5,379 nt of DNA, from the IMG/VR virus record IMGVR_UViG_2537562119_000008. One strand, written 5' to 3'. The notes under the pieces were generated by a model that worked only from the letters and a program-made list of their open reading frames with translations, was not told the origin of the DNA and did no database searches. The stretch comes from a virus (taxonomy: Duplodnaviria > Heunggongvirae > Uroviricota > Caudoviricetes). The stretch's first letter is position 1. Every line of letters begins with the position of its first letter. Below, piece after piece: positions 1 to 5,379 of the stretch. Made by a program: the position numbers and the translations under genes.

Positions 1-90
1 GCAAGGCTATACCAAAAAATCAGTGTAGGTTCAGAAAACGATGCACCATACAATCATCAATAATTTCAAATTGTCCATTGTGCATAAATC

Positions 91-133
91 ATAAAGAAAA
101 CCGCAGCACGTCGTATGCAAGAACGTGCTGCGG
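91..133 (-). terminator. Predicted intrinsic terminator-like hairpin distal to tI
   Basis: Perfect 10-bp inverted repeat CCGCAGCACG (101-110) / CGTGCTGCGG (124-133) with a 13-nt loop. On the minus strand it is followed by TTTTCTTTAT (reverse complement of 91-100). No T-tract follows it on the plus strand. Confidence 0.35.
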
Positions 134-292
134 TTGGCTGGTGAACTTTCGATAGTGCGAGTATTGAATGATTTCCAGCTGTTGCCGATTTTACTATGTT
201 TTCAGTAGAACACTTAGACAAAACTGAGGCACACAAATCTTTGCACTGGATTGCAAGGCTTTGTGCTTCTCTGGAGTGCGACATGTTTGATA

Positions 293-334
293 ACAAAAAA
301 TTAGCGCAAGAAGACAAAAATCACCTTGCGCTAA
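293..334 (-). terminator. tI / sib-region terminator hairpin downstream of int (lambda-like)
   Basis: Inverted repeat TTAGCGCAAG (301-310) / CTTGCGCTAA (325-334). On the minus strand it is followed by TTTTTTGT (reverse complement of 293-300). The minus-strand sequence GCGCAAGGTGATTTTTGTCTTCTTGCGCTAATTTTTT matches the lambda tI/sib hairpin as I remember it. Position is about 190 bp beyond the att core, as in lambda. Confidence 0.7.
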
Positions 335-575
335 TGCTCTGTCTCAGGTCACTAATACTATCTAAGTAGTTGATTCATAGTGACTGGATATGTTGTGTTT
401 TGTAGCATTATGTAGTCTATTTTTTAGACTAAAGATATTGTAACACATTGATATTAATGGTTTTTAATGTTTCGCGTTCAGCTTTTTTATACTAAGTTGG
501 CATTATAAAAAAGCATTGCTTATCAATTTGTTGCAACGAACAGGTCACTATCAGTCAAAATAAAATCATTATTTG
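328..575. other. attP: attP phage attachment site (lambda-type POP'), core at 481-495
   Basis: The 15-bp common core GCTTTTTTATACTAA is at 481-495. The P' arm (496-575, GTTGGCATTATAAAAAAGCATTGCTTATCAATTTGTTGCAACGAACAGGTCACTATCAGTCAAAATAAAATCATTATTTGATTTC) matches the lambda P' arm as I remember it. The P arm carries lambda-like sequence (AGGTCACTAATAC..., CATAGTGACTGGATATGTTGTGTTTT). The site abuts the 3' end of int. Phage-type sequence on both sides of the core indicates attP rather than a prophage attL/attR junction. Confidence 0.88.
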
Positions 576-1639
576 ATTTCAATTTTGTCCCACTCCCTGC
601 CTCTGTCATCACGATACTGTGATGCCATGGTGTCCGACTTATGCCCGAGAAGATGTTGAGCAAACTTATCGCTTATCTGCTTCTCATAGAGTCTTGCAGA
701 CAAACTGCGCAACTCGTGAAAGGTAGGCGGATCCCCTTCGAAGGAAAGACCTGATGCTTTTCGTGCGCGCATAAAATACCTTGATACTGTGCCGGATGAA
801 AGCGGTTCGCGACGAGTAGATGCAATTATGGTTTCTCCGCCAAGAATCTCTTTGCATTTATCAAGTGTTTCCTTCATTGATATTCCGAGAGCATCAACAT
901 GCAATACTGTTGGGATGGCAATTTTTACGCCTGTTTTGCTTTGCTCGACATAAAGATATCCATCTACGATATCAGACCACTTCATTTCGCATAAATCACC
1001 AACTCGTTGCCCGGTAACAACAGCCAGTTCCATTGCAAGTCTGAGCCAACATGGTGATGATTCTGCTGCTTGATAAATTTTCAGGTATTCGTCAGCCGTA
1101 AGTCTTGATCTCCTTACCTCTGATTTTGCTGCGCGAGTGGCAGCGACAGGGTTTGTTGTTATATGGCCTTCAGCTATTGCCTCTCGGAATGCATCGCTCA
1201 GTGTTGATCTGATTAACTTGGCTGACGCCGCCTTGCCCTCGTCTATGTATCCATTGAGCATTGCCGCAATTTCTTTTGTGGTGATGTCTTCAAGTGGAGC
1301 ATCAGGCAGACCCCTCCTTATTGCTTTAATTTTGCTCATGTAATTTATGAGTGTCTTCTGCTTGATTCCTCTGCTGGCCAGGATTTTTTCGTAGCGATAA
1401 AGCCATGAATGTAACGTAACGGAATTATCACTGTTGATTCTCGCTGTCAGAGGCTTGTGTTTGTGTCCTGAAAATAACTCAATGTTGGCCTGTATAGCTT
1501 CAGTGATTGCGATTCGCCTGTCTCTGCCTAATCCAAACTCTTTACCCGTCCTTGGGTCCCTGTAGCAGTAATATCCATTGTTTCTTATATAAAGGTTAGG
1601 GGGTAAATCCCGGCGCTCATGACTTCGCCTTCTTCCCAT
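569..1639 (-). CDS. int: Tyrosine recombinase, phage lambda-type integrase Int (356 aa)
   Basis: Full 356-aa ORF with ATG start. The translation (MGRRRSHERRDLPPNLYIRNNGYYCYRDPRTGKEFGLGRDRR ... HLLGHKSDTMASQYRDDRGREWDKIEIK) matches lambda Int as I remember it, including the C-terminal catalytic tyrosine motif (MASQY). The 3' end abuts the attP P' arm and the 5' end overlaps xis by 23 nt, as in lambda. Confidence 0.97.
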   Translation of the reverse strand: MGRRRSHERRDLPPNLYIRNNGYYCYRDPRTGKEFGLGRDRRIAITEAIQANIELFSGHKHKPLTARINSDNSVTLHSWLYRYEKILASRGIKQKTLINYMSKIKAIRRGLPDAPLEDITTKEIAAMLNGYIDEGKAASAKLIRSTLSDAFREAIAEGHITTNPVAATRAAKSEVRRSRLTADEYLKIYQAAESSPCWLRLAMELAVVTGQRVGDLCEMKWSDIVDGYLYVEQSKTGVKIAIPTVLHVDALGISMKETLDKCKEILGGETIIASTRREPLSSGTVSRYFMRARKASGLSFEGDPPTFHELRSLSARLYEKQISDKFAQHLLGHKSDTMASQYRDDRGREWDKIEIK

Positions 1640-1835
1640 TTCTGATCCTCTTCAAAAGGCTACCTGTTACTGGTCGATTTAAGTCAACCTTTACCGCTGA
1701 TTCGTGGAACAGATACTCTCTTCCATCCTTAACCGGAGGAGGGAATATCCTGCACTCGCGTACCCATCGACGAACTGTTTCAAGGCTTCTTGGGCGTCGC
1801 TGGCGTGCGTTCCACTCCTGAAGTGTCAAGTACAT
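1617..1835 (-). CDS. xis: Excisionase Xis (72 aa)
   Basis: The 72-aa translation MYLTLQEWNARQRRPRSLETVRRWVRECRIFPPPVKDGREYLFHESAVKVDLNRPVTGSLLKRIRNGKKAKS matches lambda Xis as I remember it. It sits immediately upstream of int and overlaps it, as in lambda. Confidence 0.95.
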   Translation of the reverse strand: MYLTLQEWNARQRRPRSLETVRRWVRECRIFPPPVKDGREYLFHESAVKVDLNRPVTGSLLKRIRNGKKAKS

Positions 1836-1865
1836 CGCAAAGTCTCCGCAATTACACGCAAGAAA
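1820..1865 (-). promoter_or_regulatory. PI promoter with cII-binding TTGC-N6-TTGC repeat, overlapping the xis start
   Basis: The minus strand reads CTTGCGTGTAATTGCGGAGACTTTGCGATGTACTTGACAC. The TTGC tetrads are the reverse complement of GCAA at 1858-1861 and 1848-1851, 6 nt apart. This is the classic cII-activated promoter architecture, and the lambda PI region lies in this position relative to the xis ATG (1835). Exact -10 and transcription start are not resolved here. Confidence 0.6.
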
Positions 1866-1887
1866 AAACCGCCATCAGGCGGCTTGG
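1862..1887 (-). terminator. Predicted intrinsic terminator overlapping the stop codon of the 55-aa ORF, just upstream of PI
   Basis: Minus strand reads AAGCCGCCTGATGGCGGTTTTTTCTT: a GC-rich stem CCGCC/GGCGG with a 4-nt loop, followed by six T. Confidence 0.45.
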
Positions 1888-2042
1888 TGTTCTTTCAGTT
1901 CTTCAATTCGAATATTGGTTACGTCTGCATGTGCTATCTGCGCCCATATCATCCAGTGGTTATAACAGTCGTTGATGTTCTCTGCTTCGATAACCCTGTT
2001 GAATGGCTCTCCATTCCATTCACCTGTGACTCGGAAGTGCAT
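1875..2042 (-). CDS. Small hypothetical protein (55 aa) between the accessory block and xis
   Basis: Not in the supplied ORF track (under 60 aa). ATG at 2042-2040 preceded by GGAG with a 7-nt spacer (minus strand ATGGAGATGATAAATG). Translation MHFRVTGEWNGEPFNRVIEAENINDCYNHWMIWAQIAHADVTNIRIEELKEHQAA. Its size (168 bp) and its 39-bp spacing from xis match the small unnamed ORF annotated next to xis in lambda, as I recall that annotation. Confidence 0.55.
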   Translation of the reverse strand: MHFRVTGEWNGEPFNRVIEAENINDCYNHWMIWAQIAHADVTNIRIEELKEHQAA

Positions 2043-2052
2043 TTATCATCTC

Positions 2053-2080
2053 CATAAAACAAAACTCGCCGTAGCGAGTT
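2053..2080 (-). terminator. Predicted intrinsic terminator-like hairpin between the 143-aa ORF and the 55-aa ORF
   Basis: 7-bp inverted repeat AACTCGC (2063-2069) / GCGAGTT (2074-2080) with a 4-nt loop. On the minus strand it is followed by TTGTTTTAT, immediately before the RBS of the 55-aa ORF. Confidence 0.35.
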
Positions 2081-2129
2081 CAGATATAATTTCCACCAAA
2101 GGCAGTAGTTGCTTGATGCTAAGAATTAT

Positions 2130-2561
2130 TCAATATCTATTCCTGTAATATCTTTTATCTTTTATCTTTTTCCTTGCAAAGCCTTTTGCTAGTGATTTTG
2201 AAACACTCATAAGTGTACTAATTCCCTCATCCTTAAAGTTTGTTTTTATAGCTTGCCAGACATCCTTTTGACGTAAGTCAGCAATAAAATCATGCCCTCT
2301 TGCTGTCAACCTCAGTGGTACTTCGATCCAACTATATCCAACACCTTCCCCTAACGCTTTGGACAATATATGACCGAACCCAGGTTTTCCATCAACCCTG
2401 ACTATTAATTCGTAGTCACATAATAATCGCATATGGAAAATAAAATCTTGGTCATATCTATTAAAGCCATTATCCTCTAGTTCACTAAGCATCGTGTCAG
2501 GGCCACGAGTTTTTTCGAATGCGATAAGTAGATCTTTTAGATATTGCTGGTCTAATTTCAT
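2130..2561 (-). CDS. Hypothetical protein (143 aa), AT-rich accessory gene with a basic C-terminal tail
   Basis: ORF with ATG start and a strong RBS (GGAGG, 5-nt spacer). Hand counts on two 60-nt samples gave roughly 27-37% G+C, against roughly 50% for a sample in int. The C-terminus is lysine/arginine-rich (KGFARKKIKDKRYYRNRY). I recognise no family with confidence; the N-terminal pattern weakly recalls small phage DUF-type proteins. Confidence 0.6.
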   Translation of the reverse strand: MKLDQQYLKDLLIAFEKTRGPDTMLSELEDNGFNRYDQDFIFHMRLLCDYELIVRVDGKPGFGHILSKALGEGVGYSWIEVPLRLTARGHDFIADLRQKDVWQAIKTNFKDEGISTLMSVSKSLAKGFARKKIKDKRYYRNRY

Positions 2562-2589
2562 TGCCGCCTCCGTGACATGTCACAGAGAT

Positions 2590-2928
2590 TTATATCATTA
2601 ATTTTGTTTCGTGCCAGCCTTTGGTCACCCAGCATTGTGAGTCACCATTACACGGGCATGAATTAACAGGAACTCTCTCGCCGCACTTACCGCACCGTTT
2701 TCTGCTGATCGATTTTATACGCCAGCGCACACGTGCATCATCCTGGCGGCTCAGTAACGCGATGTACTCACCAAACTCGCAAGGCGCACGCCTGAAGCGA
2801 CGCGTGGCACAGTTACGCTCCAGCATTTCAATTTCCTGAGCATCAAGTACAAGCTCCAGCTTACGCATACCGGATGATGCTTGCTTGGCTCTCTGATCGG
2901 CTTTGTGCTCTGTTGCTGATTTAGCCAT
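2590..2928 (-). CDS. Cys-rich hypothetical protein (112 aa), possible zinc-ribbon / Ea8.5-like protein
   Basis: ATG start with RBS AGGAAAAG about 8 nt upstream. One hand-counted 60-nt sample gave about 55% G+C, typical of the lambda-like flanks. The C-terminal half has a CxxC...CxC...C cluster (RKRCGKCGERVPVNSCPCNGDSQC). It lies 28 nt upstream of the 143-aa ORF. It is in the approximate position of lambda ea8.5 and of similar size if translation starts at the internal Met21 (92 aa). Homology to Ea8.5 is not verified. Confidence 0.55.
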   Translation of the reverse strand: MAKSATEHKADQRAKQASSGMRKLELVLDAQEIEMLERNCATRRFRRAPCEFGEYIALLSRQDDARVRWRIKSISRKRCGKCGERVPVNSCPCNGDSQCWVTKGWHETKLMI

Positions 2929-2969
2929 TCTGCTTTTCCTGCATCAGGAGAAAGACAATCATGGCGGCG

Positions 2970-3071
2970 CGGATACTTCCGGTATCTTTTTACGCGATAT
3001 TCCCCTTCAATGGCACATACAAGAAGAGAGCCATCAACAGGAGTGATTGAGGAATCGACAACCAGCAACGC
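2970..3071 (-). pseudogene. Remnant of an S24-family peptidase gene (UmuD / LexA / CI C-terminal-domain-like fragment)
   Basis: The minus-strand frame just after a TAA stop encodes LLVVDSSITPVDGSLLVCAIEGEYRVKRYRKYP. This aligns with UmuD [33 protein letters not shown] and with the LexA motif VARIDDEVTVKRL. No upstream coding sequence for the catalytic Ser (GDSM) motif was found in any frame, and similarity is lost after about 33 codons. The supplied 105-aa ORF (2751-3068) starts at TTG and otherwise looks like read-on into the 112-aa gene region. Confidence 0.5.
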
Positions 3072-3121
3072 TTAATTATCTATAGTGTCGTATTTGCTTC
3101 ATAAAATATGGCGAATAACAC

Positions 3122-3159
3122 AAAGCCCGCAGCAGCTCATTGTGCGGGCTTTTCTTATA
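3122..3159. terminator. Hairpin terminator downstream of the 204-aa secreted-protein gene
   Basis: 10-bp inverted repeat AAAGCCCGCA (3122-3131) / TGCGGGCTTT (3143-3152) with an 11-nt loop. The plus strand follows it with TTTTCTT; the minus strand follows it with a weaker TTTGTGTTATT. It lies in an AT-rich intergenic region 3' of the 204-aa gene. Confidence 0.45.
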
Positions 3160-3221
3160 CCTACTTCCTAGAGATAATTCTATGGAGGCATTAAATCAAT
3201 ACTGTCATTGGTAATATCATA

Positions 3222-3836
3222 TTATCTAAAAGTCTTTCCACTTTTAACATCTAGGTATATTCTGTTCGACAACGTCATTCCTCCGCAATATGTGAAATAG
3301 ATGTTTTCACCCTTATTGCTTGATGCCATCCACCCTCCGATTTCCTTAAAATCGCTTTCCGTGCAGACCCCTTCATTTATTAACTTCCTAGCTGCCGAAG
3401 AAAACTCTTTTTTGTATATACGGTAGTCATCAGATCCTTTGATTAAAGTATCATCTCCGCTCGCATTTTCAGCAGGATCTGATGGCCTTTCACTGCTAAG
3501 ATCACTAAGTTTAACCCATTCTGAAAACTTGCCATTAACGATTCCATTTTTTCTTGTGCAGGATTTATTACCTTCTTTAATATATTCGCTTTCCCCTCCA
3601 ACACATGAGGCTGAATATGGCTCAGTTATACGAACCCATTCACCTTTTTTTTCTAGAAAATCTACGCCTTCCCTGAAAAATAGTTTCCCAGCCACTCCAC
3701 ATTTACTTGAAGGGCAGGTATGTCTTTCCGTTCGATCAACAACAACCCATAGTTTTGATTCATTTTTTGCCATTGCCGATGGTATTTGAGATGAGACAAT
3801 TAACGTAAGCCCTAAAATTAGTATTGATTTTTTCAT
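3222..3836 (-). CDS. Secreted (Sec signal peptide) cysteine-containing protein of unknown function (204 aa), AT-rich moron
   Basis: ATG with RBS AAGGAA and a 6-nt spacer. The N-terminus MKKSILILGLTLIVSSQIPSAMA|KNE has a basic n-region, a hydrophobic core and an AxA-type cleavage site, with no lipobox Cys. The mature part has 6 Cys. Hand counts on two 60-nt samples gave roughly 33-38% G+C. Motifs GEWVRI and SEWVKL weakly recall SH3b-like folds. Confidence 0.7.
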   Translation of the reverse strand: MKKSILILGLTLIVSSQIPSAMAKNESKLWVVVDRTERHTCPSSKCGVAGKLFFREGVDFLEKKGEWVRITEPYSASCVGGESEYIKEGNKSCTRKNGIVNGKFSEWVKLSDLSSERPSDPAENASGDDTLIKGSDDYRIYKKEFSSAARKLINEGVCTESDFKEIGGWMASSNKGENIYFTYCGGMTLSNRIYLDVKSGKTFR

Positions 3837-4134
3837 TGTAATTTCCTTTTACTTTTTACAAAGCGTTTAATCATGGCTGATTATCTCTAAGTGTAGTAAC
3901 AGCCTTGTGCGAAACATGTTACCAAATCGCCATTTCAGTGTATCCGCAGTTAGGCTGCCACTTCAAGGATTCCTAATTACATGGTACGTAAGCGTAAAAT
4001 CCCGTTGGTTGGCGGGTAATAACTCTGATCAAATCTCCCTTGTCTTTTGCTCTTACGTATGCAGCTCTTGTGTATTCAACCCAGGCCTCCAGTTCAGCAA
4101 TACGCTTACTTCCATCCGAGATAACACCTTCTAC

Positions 4135-4386
4135 TCACGCTGCTCGTTGAGTTTTGATTTTTGCTGTCTCCAGCTCAACACGCAGTTTCCCCACCGTTAG
4201 CGCAATATCCTCGTTCTCCTGGTCGCGGCGTTTGATGTATTGCTGGTTTCTTTCCCGTTCATCCAGCAGTGTCAGCACAATCGATGGTGTTACCAGCTCA
4301 TGGAAAAGGTCCGCGTCAAATCCCCAGTTGTCAGGCATTGCCTGCTCTGCCGCTTCACGCAGTGCCTGAGAGTGAATTACGCTCAC
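4135..4386 (-). CDS. ea22: Ea22-like protein, N-terminal part (83 aa) ending at an in-frame TGA; likely a disrupted gene
   Basis: GTG start overlapping the stop of the upstream TraR-like gene (GTGA), at the position where lambda ea22 starts. The N-terminus MSVIHSQALREAAEQAMPDNWGFDADLFHELVTP... resembles the conserved N-terminus of Ea22-family proteins as I remember them. The frame continues open for 53 more codons after the TGA (see findings). Confidence 0.5.
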   Translation of the reverse strand: MSVIHSQALREAAEQAMPDNWGFDADLFHELVTPSIVLTLLDERERNQQYIKRRDQENEDIALTVGKLRVELETAKIKTQRAA

Positions 4387-4604
4387 TTCGAACCTCTCTG
4401 TTTACTGATAAGCTCCAGATCTTCCTGGCAACTTGCACAAGTCCGACAACCCTGAACGGCCAGGCGTCTTAGCTCATCTATGGGATCGCCACACTCACAA
4501 CAATGAGTGGCAGATACAGCCTGGTGGTTCAGGCGGCGCATTTTTATTGCTGTGTTGCGCTGTAATTCTTCAATTTCTGATGCTGAATCAATGATGTCTG
4601 CCAT
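4383..4604 (-). CDS. TraR/DksA-family C4 zinc-finger protein (lambda Orf73-like), 73 aa
   Basis: The translation has the C-x2-C-x17-C-x2-C zinc finger (CECGDPIDELRRLAVQGCRTCASC). This aligns with the F-plasmid TraR motif CEACGNPIPEARRKIFPGVTLCVEC. Length is 73 aa, and the stop overlaps the ea22-like start. Confidence 0.8.
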   Translation of the reverse strand: MADIIDSASEIEELQRNTAIKMRRLNHQAVSATHCCECGDPIDELRRLAVQGCRTCASCQEDLELISKQRGSK

Positions 4605-4656
4605 CTTCCATTAATCCCTGAATTGTTGGTTAATACGCTTGGGGGTAAATGCGAGC

Positions 4657-4680
4657 AATAAAAAAGGAGCCTGTAGCTCC
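4657..4680 (-). terminator. Weak intrinsic terminator-like hairpin between the 93-aa ORF and the TraR-like gene
   Basis: Stem GGAGC (4666-4670) / GCTCC (4676-4680) with a 5-nt loop. On the minus strand it is followed by TTTTTTATT (reverse complement of 4657-4665). The stem is short, so termination would be weak or partial. Confidence 0.3.
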
Positions 4681-4702
4681 CTGATAATTTTGCTTTTCAT
4701 GT

Positions 4703-4984
4703 TCATCGTTCCTTAAAGACGCCGTTTAACATGCCGATTGCCAGGCTTAAATGAGTCGGTGTGAATCCCATCAGCGTTACCGTTTCGCGGTGCTTCTTCA
4801 GTACGCTACGGCAAATGTCATCGACGTTTTTATCCGGAAACTGCTGTCTGGCTTTTTTGATTTCAGAATTAGCCTGACGGGCAATGCTGCGAAGGGCGTT
4901 TTCTTGCTGAGGTGTCATTGAACAAGCCCCATGTCGGCAAGCATAAGCACACAGAATATGAAGCCCGCTGCCAGAAAAATGCAT
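4703..4984 (-). CDS. Hypothetical protein (93 aa; alternative start at 4918 gives 71 aa)
   Basis: ORF with ATG at 4984. An internal ATG at 4918 overlaps the stop of a possible 27-aa upstream ORF (ATGA). No recognisable domain. It occupies roughly the position of lambda orf61 but does not match its size. Confidence 0.5.
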   Translation of the reverse strand: MHFSGSGLHILCAYACRHGACSMTPQQENALRSIARQANSEIKKARQQFPDKNVDDICRSVLKKHRETVTLMGFTPTHLSLAIGMLNGVFKER

Positions 4985-4998
4985 TCAGTGGTTGTCAT
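4915..4998 (-). CDS. Possible small hydrophobic peptide (27 aa), translationally coupled between orf63 and the downstream ORF
   Basis: ATG at 4998-4996 overlaps the orf63 stop (ATGA). Translation MTTTECIFLAAGFIFCVLMLADMGLVQ has a single hydrophobic, transmembrane-like core. Its TGA at 4917-4915 overlaps the ATG at 4918 (ATGA). Not in the ORF track (under 60 aa). It is mutually exclusive with the first 22 codons of the 93-aa reading. Confidence 0.25.
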   Translation of the reverse strand: MTTTECIFLAAGFIFCVLMLADMGLVQ

Positions 4999-5186
4999 AC
5001 CTGGTCTCTCTCATCTGCTTCTGCTTTCGCCACCATCATTTCCAGCTTTTGTGAAAGGGATGCGGCTAACGTATGAAATTCTTCGTCTGTTTCTACTGGT
5101 ATTGGCACAAACCTGACTCCAATTTGAGCGAGGCTATGTGCCATCTCGATACACGTTCTTAACTCAACAGGAGATGCTTTGTGCAT
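4995..5186 (-). CDS. orf63: Small early-left protein, lambda orf63-like (63 aa)
   Basis: 63-aa ORF with ATG start. Its size (192 bp), its 28-nt overlap with the upstream orf60a-like ORF and its distance from the exo stop all reproduce the lambda orf60a/orf63 arrangement as I remember it. The protein sequence itself was not verified against lambda. Confidence 0.6.
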   Translation of the reverse strand: MHKASPVELRTCIEMAHSLAQIGVRFVPIPVETDEEFHTLAASLSQKLEMMVAKAEADERDQV

Positions 5187-5341
5187 ACAGCCCCCCGTTT
5201 ATTATTTATCTCCTCAGCCAGCCGCTGTGCTTTCAGGGGATTTCTGATAACAGAAAGGCCGGGAAATACCCAGCCTCGCTTTGTAACGGAGTAGACGAAA
5301 GTGATCGCACCTACCCGGATATTATCGTGAGGATGCTTCAT
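5159..5341 (-). CDS. orf60a: Small early-left protein, lambda orf60a-like (60 aa from the ATG overlapping the exo stop)
   Basis: The ATG at 5341-5339 overlaps the exo TGA (5340-5338) as ATGA, giving a 183-bp ORF as in lambda orf60a. The ORF track starts 2 codons earlier, at the ATG at 5347. Translation MKHPHDNIRVGAITFVYSVTKRGWVFPGLSVIRNPLKAQRLAEEINNKRGAVCTKHLLLS. Confidence 0.6.
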   Translation of the reverse strand: MKHPHDNIRVGAITFVYSVTKRGWVFPGLSVIRNPLKAQRLAEEINNKRGAVCTKHLLLS

Positions 5342-5379
5342 CGCCATTGCTCCCCAAATACAAAACCAATTTCAGCCAG
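5338..5379 (-). CDS. exo: Exonuclease (lambda Exo / Red-alpha), 3' end only; gene truncated by the window edge
   Basis: The minus-strand frame entering from the right edge reads LAEIGFVFGEQWR then stop. This matches the C-terminus of lambda exonuclease (...DEALAEIGFVFGEQWR) as I remember it, and the stop overlaps the orf60a start as in lambda. Confidence 0.8.
   Translation of the reverse strand: MAEIGFVFGEQWR

Follow-up and report, generated by a model that had tools for sequence, protein, structure and literature searches.

A putative humD relic between two recombination joints in the left arm of a lambda-like phage

Genes and features of the locus

The window (the whole stretch of DNA that was analysed, 5,379 nucleotides) is the left arm of a lambda-like phage, and its genes all lie on the minus strand (Table 1). 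Its lambda backbone is made up of positions 228–2090 and 4088–5379, which are 96–97% identical to lambda itself; lambda ea8.5 and the front of ea22 are replaced by window 2091–4087. Its identity to phage Chlobot is 99.3%, and that to a prophage of E. coli AMSHJX01, which occupies the lambda attachment site beside ybhC, is 99.8% for the part from position 481 to the right. The humD-derived segment discussed here is located in the accessory region between orf55/xis and ea22.

Table 1. Coordinates of the genes and sequence features of the window
Feature	Position	Strand	Remarks
int	569–1639	-	
xis	1617–1835	-	
orf55	1875–2042	-	
DUF2513 gene	2130–2561	-	
orf112	2590–2928	-	
105-aa TTG ORF from mechanical ORF calling (humD remnant continuing out of frame through orf112)	2751–3068	-	judged not a gene
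Lambdoid ninX 3' end remnant (last ~15 codons), out of frame with the humD piece	2929–2973	-	45 nt
3' crossover point, 'TCC' common to humD and ninX	2971–2973	-	
humD-derived remnant, codons 46–78 of the 129-codon HumD (UmuD'-like, S24 fold)	2971–3071	-	DNA and protein homology
In-frame TAA stop at the 5' breakpoint	3072–3074	-	
3' untranslated tail of the 204-aa cassette	3074–3221	-	strong hairpin
204-aa gene	3222–3836	-	
ea22 remnant	4135–4386	-	
TraR/DksA-type gene	4383–4604	-	

The phage side of attP is present in window 1–480, where the match to the lambda P arm begins at 228 and that to Chlobot at 293, the match to the AMSHJX01 prophage starting only at 481. Because the window carries this side of attP, the source sequence was non-integrated or in phage form. 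No match to window 1–227 was found in lambda, Chlobot or the AMSHJX01 prophage. At 37–132 (plus strand) there is a sub-threshold similarity to the Rfam family CssrB (Shigella chromosomal sRNA B), which scores 44 bits where the gathering score is 76 (E = 1e-6). Another scar borders the replaced segment on its far side, namely the Ead/Ea22-like remnant of 83 aa, which is classified by PGAP as a frameshifted, incomplete pseudogene.

The 204-aa gene is AT-rich, encodes a signal-peptide-like N-terminus, and forms a cassette that stands in place of the 5' part of humD. It could be assigned to no family, the only match being a weak one to SH3_3. The hairpin in its untranslated tail (~3152–3122) is predicted to be terminator-like in both directions. 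Among complete E. coli genomes, the cassette was never found without the humD remnant, and a search of one genome per species retrieved only distant relatives of the 204-aa protein, from Pseudomonas paracarnis (66%) and Roseateles (35%); neither search recovered the cassette in another context, i.e. the second parent of the 5' joint. IS1 lies within this gene or replaces it in YSP8-1 and in the records OY754443 and EC529, and is found just past its 5' end in ATCC 8739.

On the other side of the humD-derived segment, the N-terminus of the orf112 product shows a weak match (E = 0.0068) to YbfE, a 'LexA regulated protein', and is presumably ribbon-helix-helix-like, while its C-terminus is Cys-rich (CGKCG...CPCNGDSQC). 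A near-perfect palindrome, CTCCGTGACATGTCACAGAG, occupies 2568–2587, in the 28 nt that separate orf112 from the DUF2513 gene; it overlaps a CTGT-N8-ACAG pattern with one mismatch, a kind of site that does not occur above chance.

Identity of the humD-derived segment

On the minus strand, window 3071..2970 reads ALLVVDSSITPVDGSLLVCAIEGEYRVKRYRKYP. The first-pass annotation had interpreted this stretch as the remnant, some 33 codons long, of an S24 peptidase gene around the catalytic lysine, and significant matches to HumD at both the DNA and the protein level confirmed this reading. In blastn searches, window 2966/2968–3071 matched genes annotated as 'HumD family' or 'S24 family peptidase' with 81–91% identity (E down to 8e-33); these matches sit on hundreds of non-mobilizable plasmids of ~90–120 kb. 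When the full 129-aa HumD was compared with the whole window by tblastn, residues 46–82 alone aligned, with 33 of 37 residues identical (E = 8e-21), and the NCBIfam HumD equivalog model NF051876 was matched over profile positions 46–99 (E = 3.8e-15). The segment stays below the whole-protein threshold of this model (56 bits against a cut-off of 120, intact HumD scoring 217.7 bits). Its match to Pfam Peptidase_S24 (PF00717) is also weak and sub-threshold (14.3 bits against a cut-off of 23.3, E = 0.034), so that homology could be established only by the comparisons at the DNA level and with the NCBIfam models.

The closest known system is HumD of P1 and of phage-plasmids of the Cyrano/pEC881_2/pRM9975 type (NF051876, 'HumD family translesion DNA polymerase'), of whose gene the segment represents codons 46–78. 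Its DNA is 81–92% identical to intact humD genes overall, 83% to P1 humD and 91–92% to the phage-plasmid alleles. The window allele retains the counterpart of UmuD Lys97 (YRVKRY, codon AAA at 2990–2988). Among solved structures, only those of UmuD/UmuD' were matched (E ~5e-4), and the alignment with UmuD proposed in the first-pass annotation was reproduced against them (LLVVDSSIT.../LLIVDSAIT..., UmuD residues 71–100; PDB 1UMU, 1AY9, 1I4V and 8GMT). The fold family is common to both, but UmuD is the more distant relation (~50% identity over 30 residues); the remnant derives from the phage HumD branch and not from the chromosomal umuD gene.

Only 101 of the 390 nt of humD are left. The N-terminal 45 residues of HumD, which include the serine motif, matched no frame of the window (best E = 0.43), as had been claimed for the region upstream, where the (G/A)DS(M/H) segment that should precede the LLVVD strand is missing. 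The C-terminal 50 residues (80–129) likewise matched no frame of the window (best E = 0.14). No exact LexA box (CTGT-N8-ACAG) occurs in the window, and sites with one mismatch are not above the chance count. Compared with humD of P1 and the phage-plasmids, the remnant is devoid of LexA box and start codon and has neither the serine motif nor the C-terminal third, so that it cannot supply a UmuD' function.

The lost gene had been described as self-cleaving repressor-like or UmuD-like, and it is the second term that applies, in the form of a UmuD'-type HumD. The fragment matches models of HumD and of polymerase V subunits only, and no repressor model; a self-cleaving repressor of the LexA/CI type was ruled out, considering that intact HumD of the donor type reaches 29 bits against a cut-off of 111 for the LexA model. 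In addition, HumD of the phage-plasmids begins with MGFPSPAADY, and its GFPSPAADY start corresponds to the residue after the UmuD cleavage site. As HumD starts past that site, the notion of a self-cleaving repressor was dropped. The ancestral gene is identified by these matches as HumD, a UmuD' of pre-processed type. In PMC7092418, citing McLenigan et al. (1999), HumD is described as the P1 counterpart of UmuD', produced already shortened and active; for its function, both PMC7092418 and PMC4713147 cite McLenigan et al. (1999, J Bacteriol 181:7005).

Joints, flanks and reading frame

The boundaries of the segment were set by a base-by-base comparison with eight intact humD alleles, and homology drops sharply at both ends. 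On the 5' side, its limit is position 3071, with the breakpoint at 3071/3072 (window ...TAATTAA|GCG... against humD ...CAGGGT|GCA...); the DNA upstream is unrelated to humD, and the stop codon that had been noted immediately upstream lies directly at this breakpoint. On the 3' side, the window follows humD to TAT at 2975–2973 and ninX from G2970 on, with patchy microhomology around the common TCC (window TATCCGCGCCGCCAT, humD TATCCACGTCAGCAT, ninX TCTCCGCGCCGCCAT).

The earlier statement that there was no similarity downstream holds for S24 proteins, but the 45 nt that come next were identified as the end of a lambdoid ninX gene, with 92% identity to ninX of many prophages. Strain PKF11 has an intact ninX with an orf112 homologue directly behind it, and this DNA is contiguous with window 2597–2973 at 91.5% identity. 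The ninX tail contains a Shine-Dalgarno-like AGGA nine nucleotides ahead of the orf112 ATG (2928–2926), and the stop codon of the ninX frame (TAA, 2924–2922) overlaps the orf112 start (AATGGCTAA). The tail thus appears to be the translational start region of orf112, and its role as supplier of the ribosome-binding site would explain why it has been retained.

The flanks of the remnant also occur separately elsewhere. A recombination scar between two AT-rich morons had been proposed; the scar stands, but of its two neighbours only the 204-aa cassette is AT-rich, the other being a GC-richer block that consists of the ninX tail and orf112. Judged from its breakpoints, its flanks and its frame, the segment is a pseudogene remnant at a lambdoid mosaic joint.

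The arrangement of the window was found in 133 of 5,426 complete E. coli genomes, always with the 204-aa cassette, and also in a sequenced phage. This shared structure excludes the sequencing error that had been considered as an alternative, in which an intact gene would only seem broken. A chance match can be dismissed together with it: the sub-threshold Pfam score is the one point that could be raised for either, and against them stand the E values obtained at the DNA level and with the HumD model, the sharp ends of the homology with no trace of other parts of humD in any frame, and the identical structure of independently sequenced genomes.

A 12-nt inverted repeat, AATTATCTATAG / CTAGAGATAATT (3074–3085 / 3168–3179, 11 of 12 positions complementary), flanks the terminator-like hairpin, and its outer arm abuts the 5' breakpoint of humD. 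The repeat could be due to chance, or it could mark the edge of a small mobile terminator cassette.

The reading frame was followed in a sample of 28 copies with the window-type 5' joint. In-frame stops are present in 13 of them, so that the frame is evidently not kept up: in 12 copies, GAA at 3002, four codons upstream of the lysine codon, is changed to TAA, and in one copy (locus L022) the lysine codon itself is changed from AAA to TAA at 2990. Other copies show changes of T to I, V to A, S to C, A to V and R to C. Six of the eight polymorphic sites among the truncated E. coli alleles fall at codon positions 1 or 2, whereas six of the seven fixed differences between all truncated copies and the plasmid-type humD fall at position 3 (binomial p = 0.0069; Fisher p = 0.041); some of the fixed states are seen in other intact humD alleles too. 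The excess of fixed differences at position 3 indicates that most of the divergence probably predates the loss of function of the donor gene, the later changes looking unconstrained. The donor would have been a working humD allele, distinct from the alleles sampled.

It is extremely improbable that the 105-aa TTG ORF is a real gene, whose product would act as a dominant-negative mimic against host UmuD'/UmuC or against HumD of a co-resident phage-plasmid. Its 34-residue UmuD'-like segment does include the conserved strand region around the lysine, and both the window lineage and Chlobot have the frame open, with the annotation 'UmuD-like protein' in Chlobot. On the other hand, the nonsense codons reported above arose by two independent mutations, no Shine-Dalgarno sequence or other ribosome-binding site precedes the TTG at 3068, and the segment scores less than half the family cut-off. 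Furthermore, 70 of the 105 codons are an out-of-frame read-through of orf112, and intact homologues of orf112 in its own frame exist elsewhere. It is also unlikely that one third of a beta-rich S24 domain would fold.

It should be noted that the Chlobot record (PP925838) carries both this ORF (2952–3269, 'UmuD-like protein') and an orf112 cut to a 46-aa 'transcriptional regulator' (2791–2931). Both look like annotation artefacts, and their correction is a practical use of the present analysis. In RefSeq, PGAP has independently classified the fragment as a pseudogene ('DNA repair protein', incomplete), and this call is the correct one.

Earlier states and origin of the locus

Two earlier states of the locus were found, and in what follows they are called stages 0 and 1, the window representing stage 2. 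An alignment of the locus to related prophages with an intact gene had been envisaged in the first-pass annotation, and such prophages exist. Besides the four complete genomes with the stage-1 form described below, four further chromosomes match only as far as the joint; the two that were examined, SB0258h1 and Ec-U3, have an intact 390-nt humD (WP_000506720.1) with its LexA box and its own terminator. The prophage that carries this stage-0 gene is P22-like and located at thrW; humD stands last in its early-left operon, just before an excisionase-like gene and the integrase, and is part of a block of 2,785 nt with 98.7% identity to the phage-plasmid pRM9975. The LexA box of one intact copy (L053) reads CTGTATGTGTATACAG, and a box is also annotated in P1.

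Stage 1 was recognized when IMG/VR was scanned with the 29-nt core of the fragment. Of the 30 contigs retrieved, most have the window arrangement and seven have an essentially full-length humD (one of them internally gapped), while in three (L029, L033 and L036) humD nucleotides 1–239 are joined to the ninX tail, orf112, the DUF2513 gene and orf55, in a block that is 97.3% identical to window 1859–3071. In L033, the ATG is preceded by AAGAGG and by a CTGT-N8-ACAG LexA box (CTGTATGTATATACAG), and the joint, AAGTATCCGCGCCGCCATGATTG, is that of the window; the humD/ninX joint has the same sequence in the stage-1 intermediates as in the window. The same state is found in four complete E. coli genomes, where it is annotated by PGAP as a 'HumD family' pseudogene without the C-terminus; AST215 is among the stage-1 examples. 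Stages 0 and 1 are collinear on both sides of the replacement, and differ in that 1,248 nt stand in place of 247 nt (the last 151 nt of humD and the terminator region). While orf112 is intact in the window and in PKF11, it has an internal stop in ATCC 8739, TW14425, AH65 and the stage-1 intermediates.

The stretch is very probably a non-functional relic of humD, enclosed between two illegitimate recombination joints and reached through this three-stage series. From an intact humD with LexA box and terminator, in P22-like prophages at thrW, the 3' part of the gene would first have been replaced at codon ~78 by the 1,248-nt block, with 3 nt of exact microhomology. Subsequently, the whole sequence ahead of codon 46, with LexA box, start codon and serine motif, would have given way to the 204-aa cassette and its terminator, resulting in the window. 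The block may have reached the lambda int/xis backbone by a homologous crossover in the common orf55, a likely site because the homology to lambda (to 2090) and that to the intermediates (from 1859) overlap there. Being located between two retained cassettes, the remnant would simply hitchhike, passively transcribed in the leftward early transcript and drifting neutrally. The loss of humD is thus best described as two successive replacements, and not as decay in place. With respect to the earlier proposal that the gene had once occupied this site and was lost by deletion or replacement, two replacements are supported by the comparison, but an intact humD is documented only in a sister lambdoid lineage and not on this lambda-int backbone.

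The possibility that the remnant was captured directly as a fragment from a phage-plasmid, in one illegitimate event and without ever being intact in a lambdoid phage, is considered very unlikely. It would fit the fact that the closest intact genes are mostly on phage-plasmids and that none of the sampled prophage alleles is identical to that of the window. It conflicts, however, with the intact humD at the equivalent site of P22-like prophages and with the intermediates, which share the 3' joint, keep a complete 5' end with the LexA box, and show the same gene order as the intact-humD prophages (collinearity) to the left and right of the replaced stretch.

Two facts fit less readily with the three-stage series. 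The first is that the window allele keeps an open frame of 105 codons, for which one phage record annotates a protein. The second concerns the humD part of the stage-1 intermediates, which is a plasmid-type allele: 9 of its first 66 nt are not those of the window, while the 35 nt adjoining the joint are all the same. A straight line of descent from the sampled intermediates to the window allele is therefore only partly tenable: clustered differences, together with a single origin of the joint, imply an additional allele swap in one lineage, which would have recombined homologously with a phage-plasmid. Over at least 1.4 kb, the intermediates are ~99% identical to phage-plasmids of today, which suggests that the swap may have taken place in the intermediates.

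A retention of the remnant for a role as DNA or RNA, either to space or insulate the orf112 ribosome-binding site from the terminator or as a patch of homology for exchange between prophages and phage-plasmids, appears highly improbable. In this respect, the 35-nt run next to the joint (~3005–2971) is identical to Cyrano-type humD alleles, the ~99% identical blocks shared by intermediates and phage-plasmids end exactly at the joint, and the arrangement is stable in the 133 genomes. Yet promoter and terminator scans, an Rfam search and RNA folding of window 2925–3225 gave nothing except the terminator-like hairpin: there was no promoter-like site on the relevant strand and no Rfam match, and the RNA fold was unexceptional (z = -1.9). 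In the alleles that were aligned, variable sites are also denser in the remnant (8 in ~100 nt) than in orf112 (19 in 339 nt) or in the 3' tail (5 in 148 nt), and linkage to the two neighbouring cassettes accounts for the co-inheritance. Equally little credence is given to the broader idea that the remnant is not wholly inert, whether through a peptide from the open 105-codon frame that perturbs the assembly of polymerase V or HumD or, more plausibly, because the 35-nt run is a recurrent crossover point for the exchange of early-region cargo between lambdoid prophages and phage-plasmids of the Cyrano/P1 type.

Taken as a relic, the remnant is real, apparently non-functional, ordinary for lambdoid mosaicism, and already annotated as a pseudogene in RefSeq. 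As a discovery it is minor, because gene scraps are expected at the module joints of lambdoid phages. It is useful as a worked example in which three successive states survive, namely a gene that is intact, one cut at its 3' end, and one cut at both ends. The concept of lambdoid mosaic joints and of 'morons' reportedly comes from the phage-genomics literature of Hendrix and colleagues, and the sharp homology breaks, the independently distributed cassettes, the microhomology joint and the gene tail carrying the ribosome-binding site of the next gene all match it. The locus is a textbook mosaic joint, unusual in that two earlier stages survive.

The comparison also documents early-region blocks of kilobase scale that P22-like and lambda-like prophages share, at ~99% identity, with phage-plasmids of ~100–120 kb. 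Between P22-like prophages and the phage-plasmids Cyrano, pRM9975 and pEC881_2, these common blocks measure 1.4–2.8 kb (for example L053 3178–5962 against L048 1178–3962, and L046 5335–6710 against L048 2335–3710), and they point to recent exchange between integrated lambdoid phages and phage-plasmids. In the phage-plasmids, humD adjoins apbC and metG. The window arrangement itself was found at 11 places on plasmids. One of them, the 145-kb plasmid pABWA45_1 (NZ_CP022155.1), carries a prophage segment from int to the DUF1317 gene, humD remnant included, between two IS26 copies and together with cryptic-prophage debris (rrrD, trkG and ynaK).

Unannotated humD-like pseudogenes were also noticed beside attP in lambdoid phages that integrate at sbcB (mEp234, Sf101, and the Stx2 phages 1717 and 2851), and their homology likewise starts at about codon 45/46. 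They differ from the remnant in residue identity (~54%), in their site, between the tail fibre genes and attP, and in having kept the 3' two-thirds of the gene rather than its middle third. A single truncation event for the window and for the mEp234/Stx2-phage fragments was ruled out, given the different lineages and the different genomic sites. In HK140 and HK639 the humD-like gene is intact, and in HK140 it follows dinI. In the extracted loci these sequences span 2501–2749 (L008, mEp234), 2501–2745 (L009, Stx2 phage 1717) and 2501–2890 (L007, HK140). Upstream of the mEp234 fragment, the reading 'LFIKP' recalls the UmuD N-terminus, and hints at an internal deletion.
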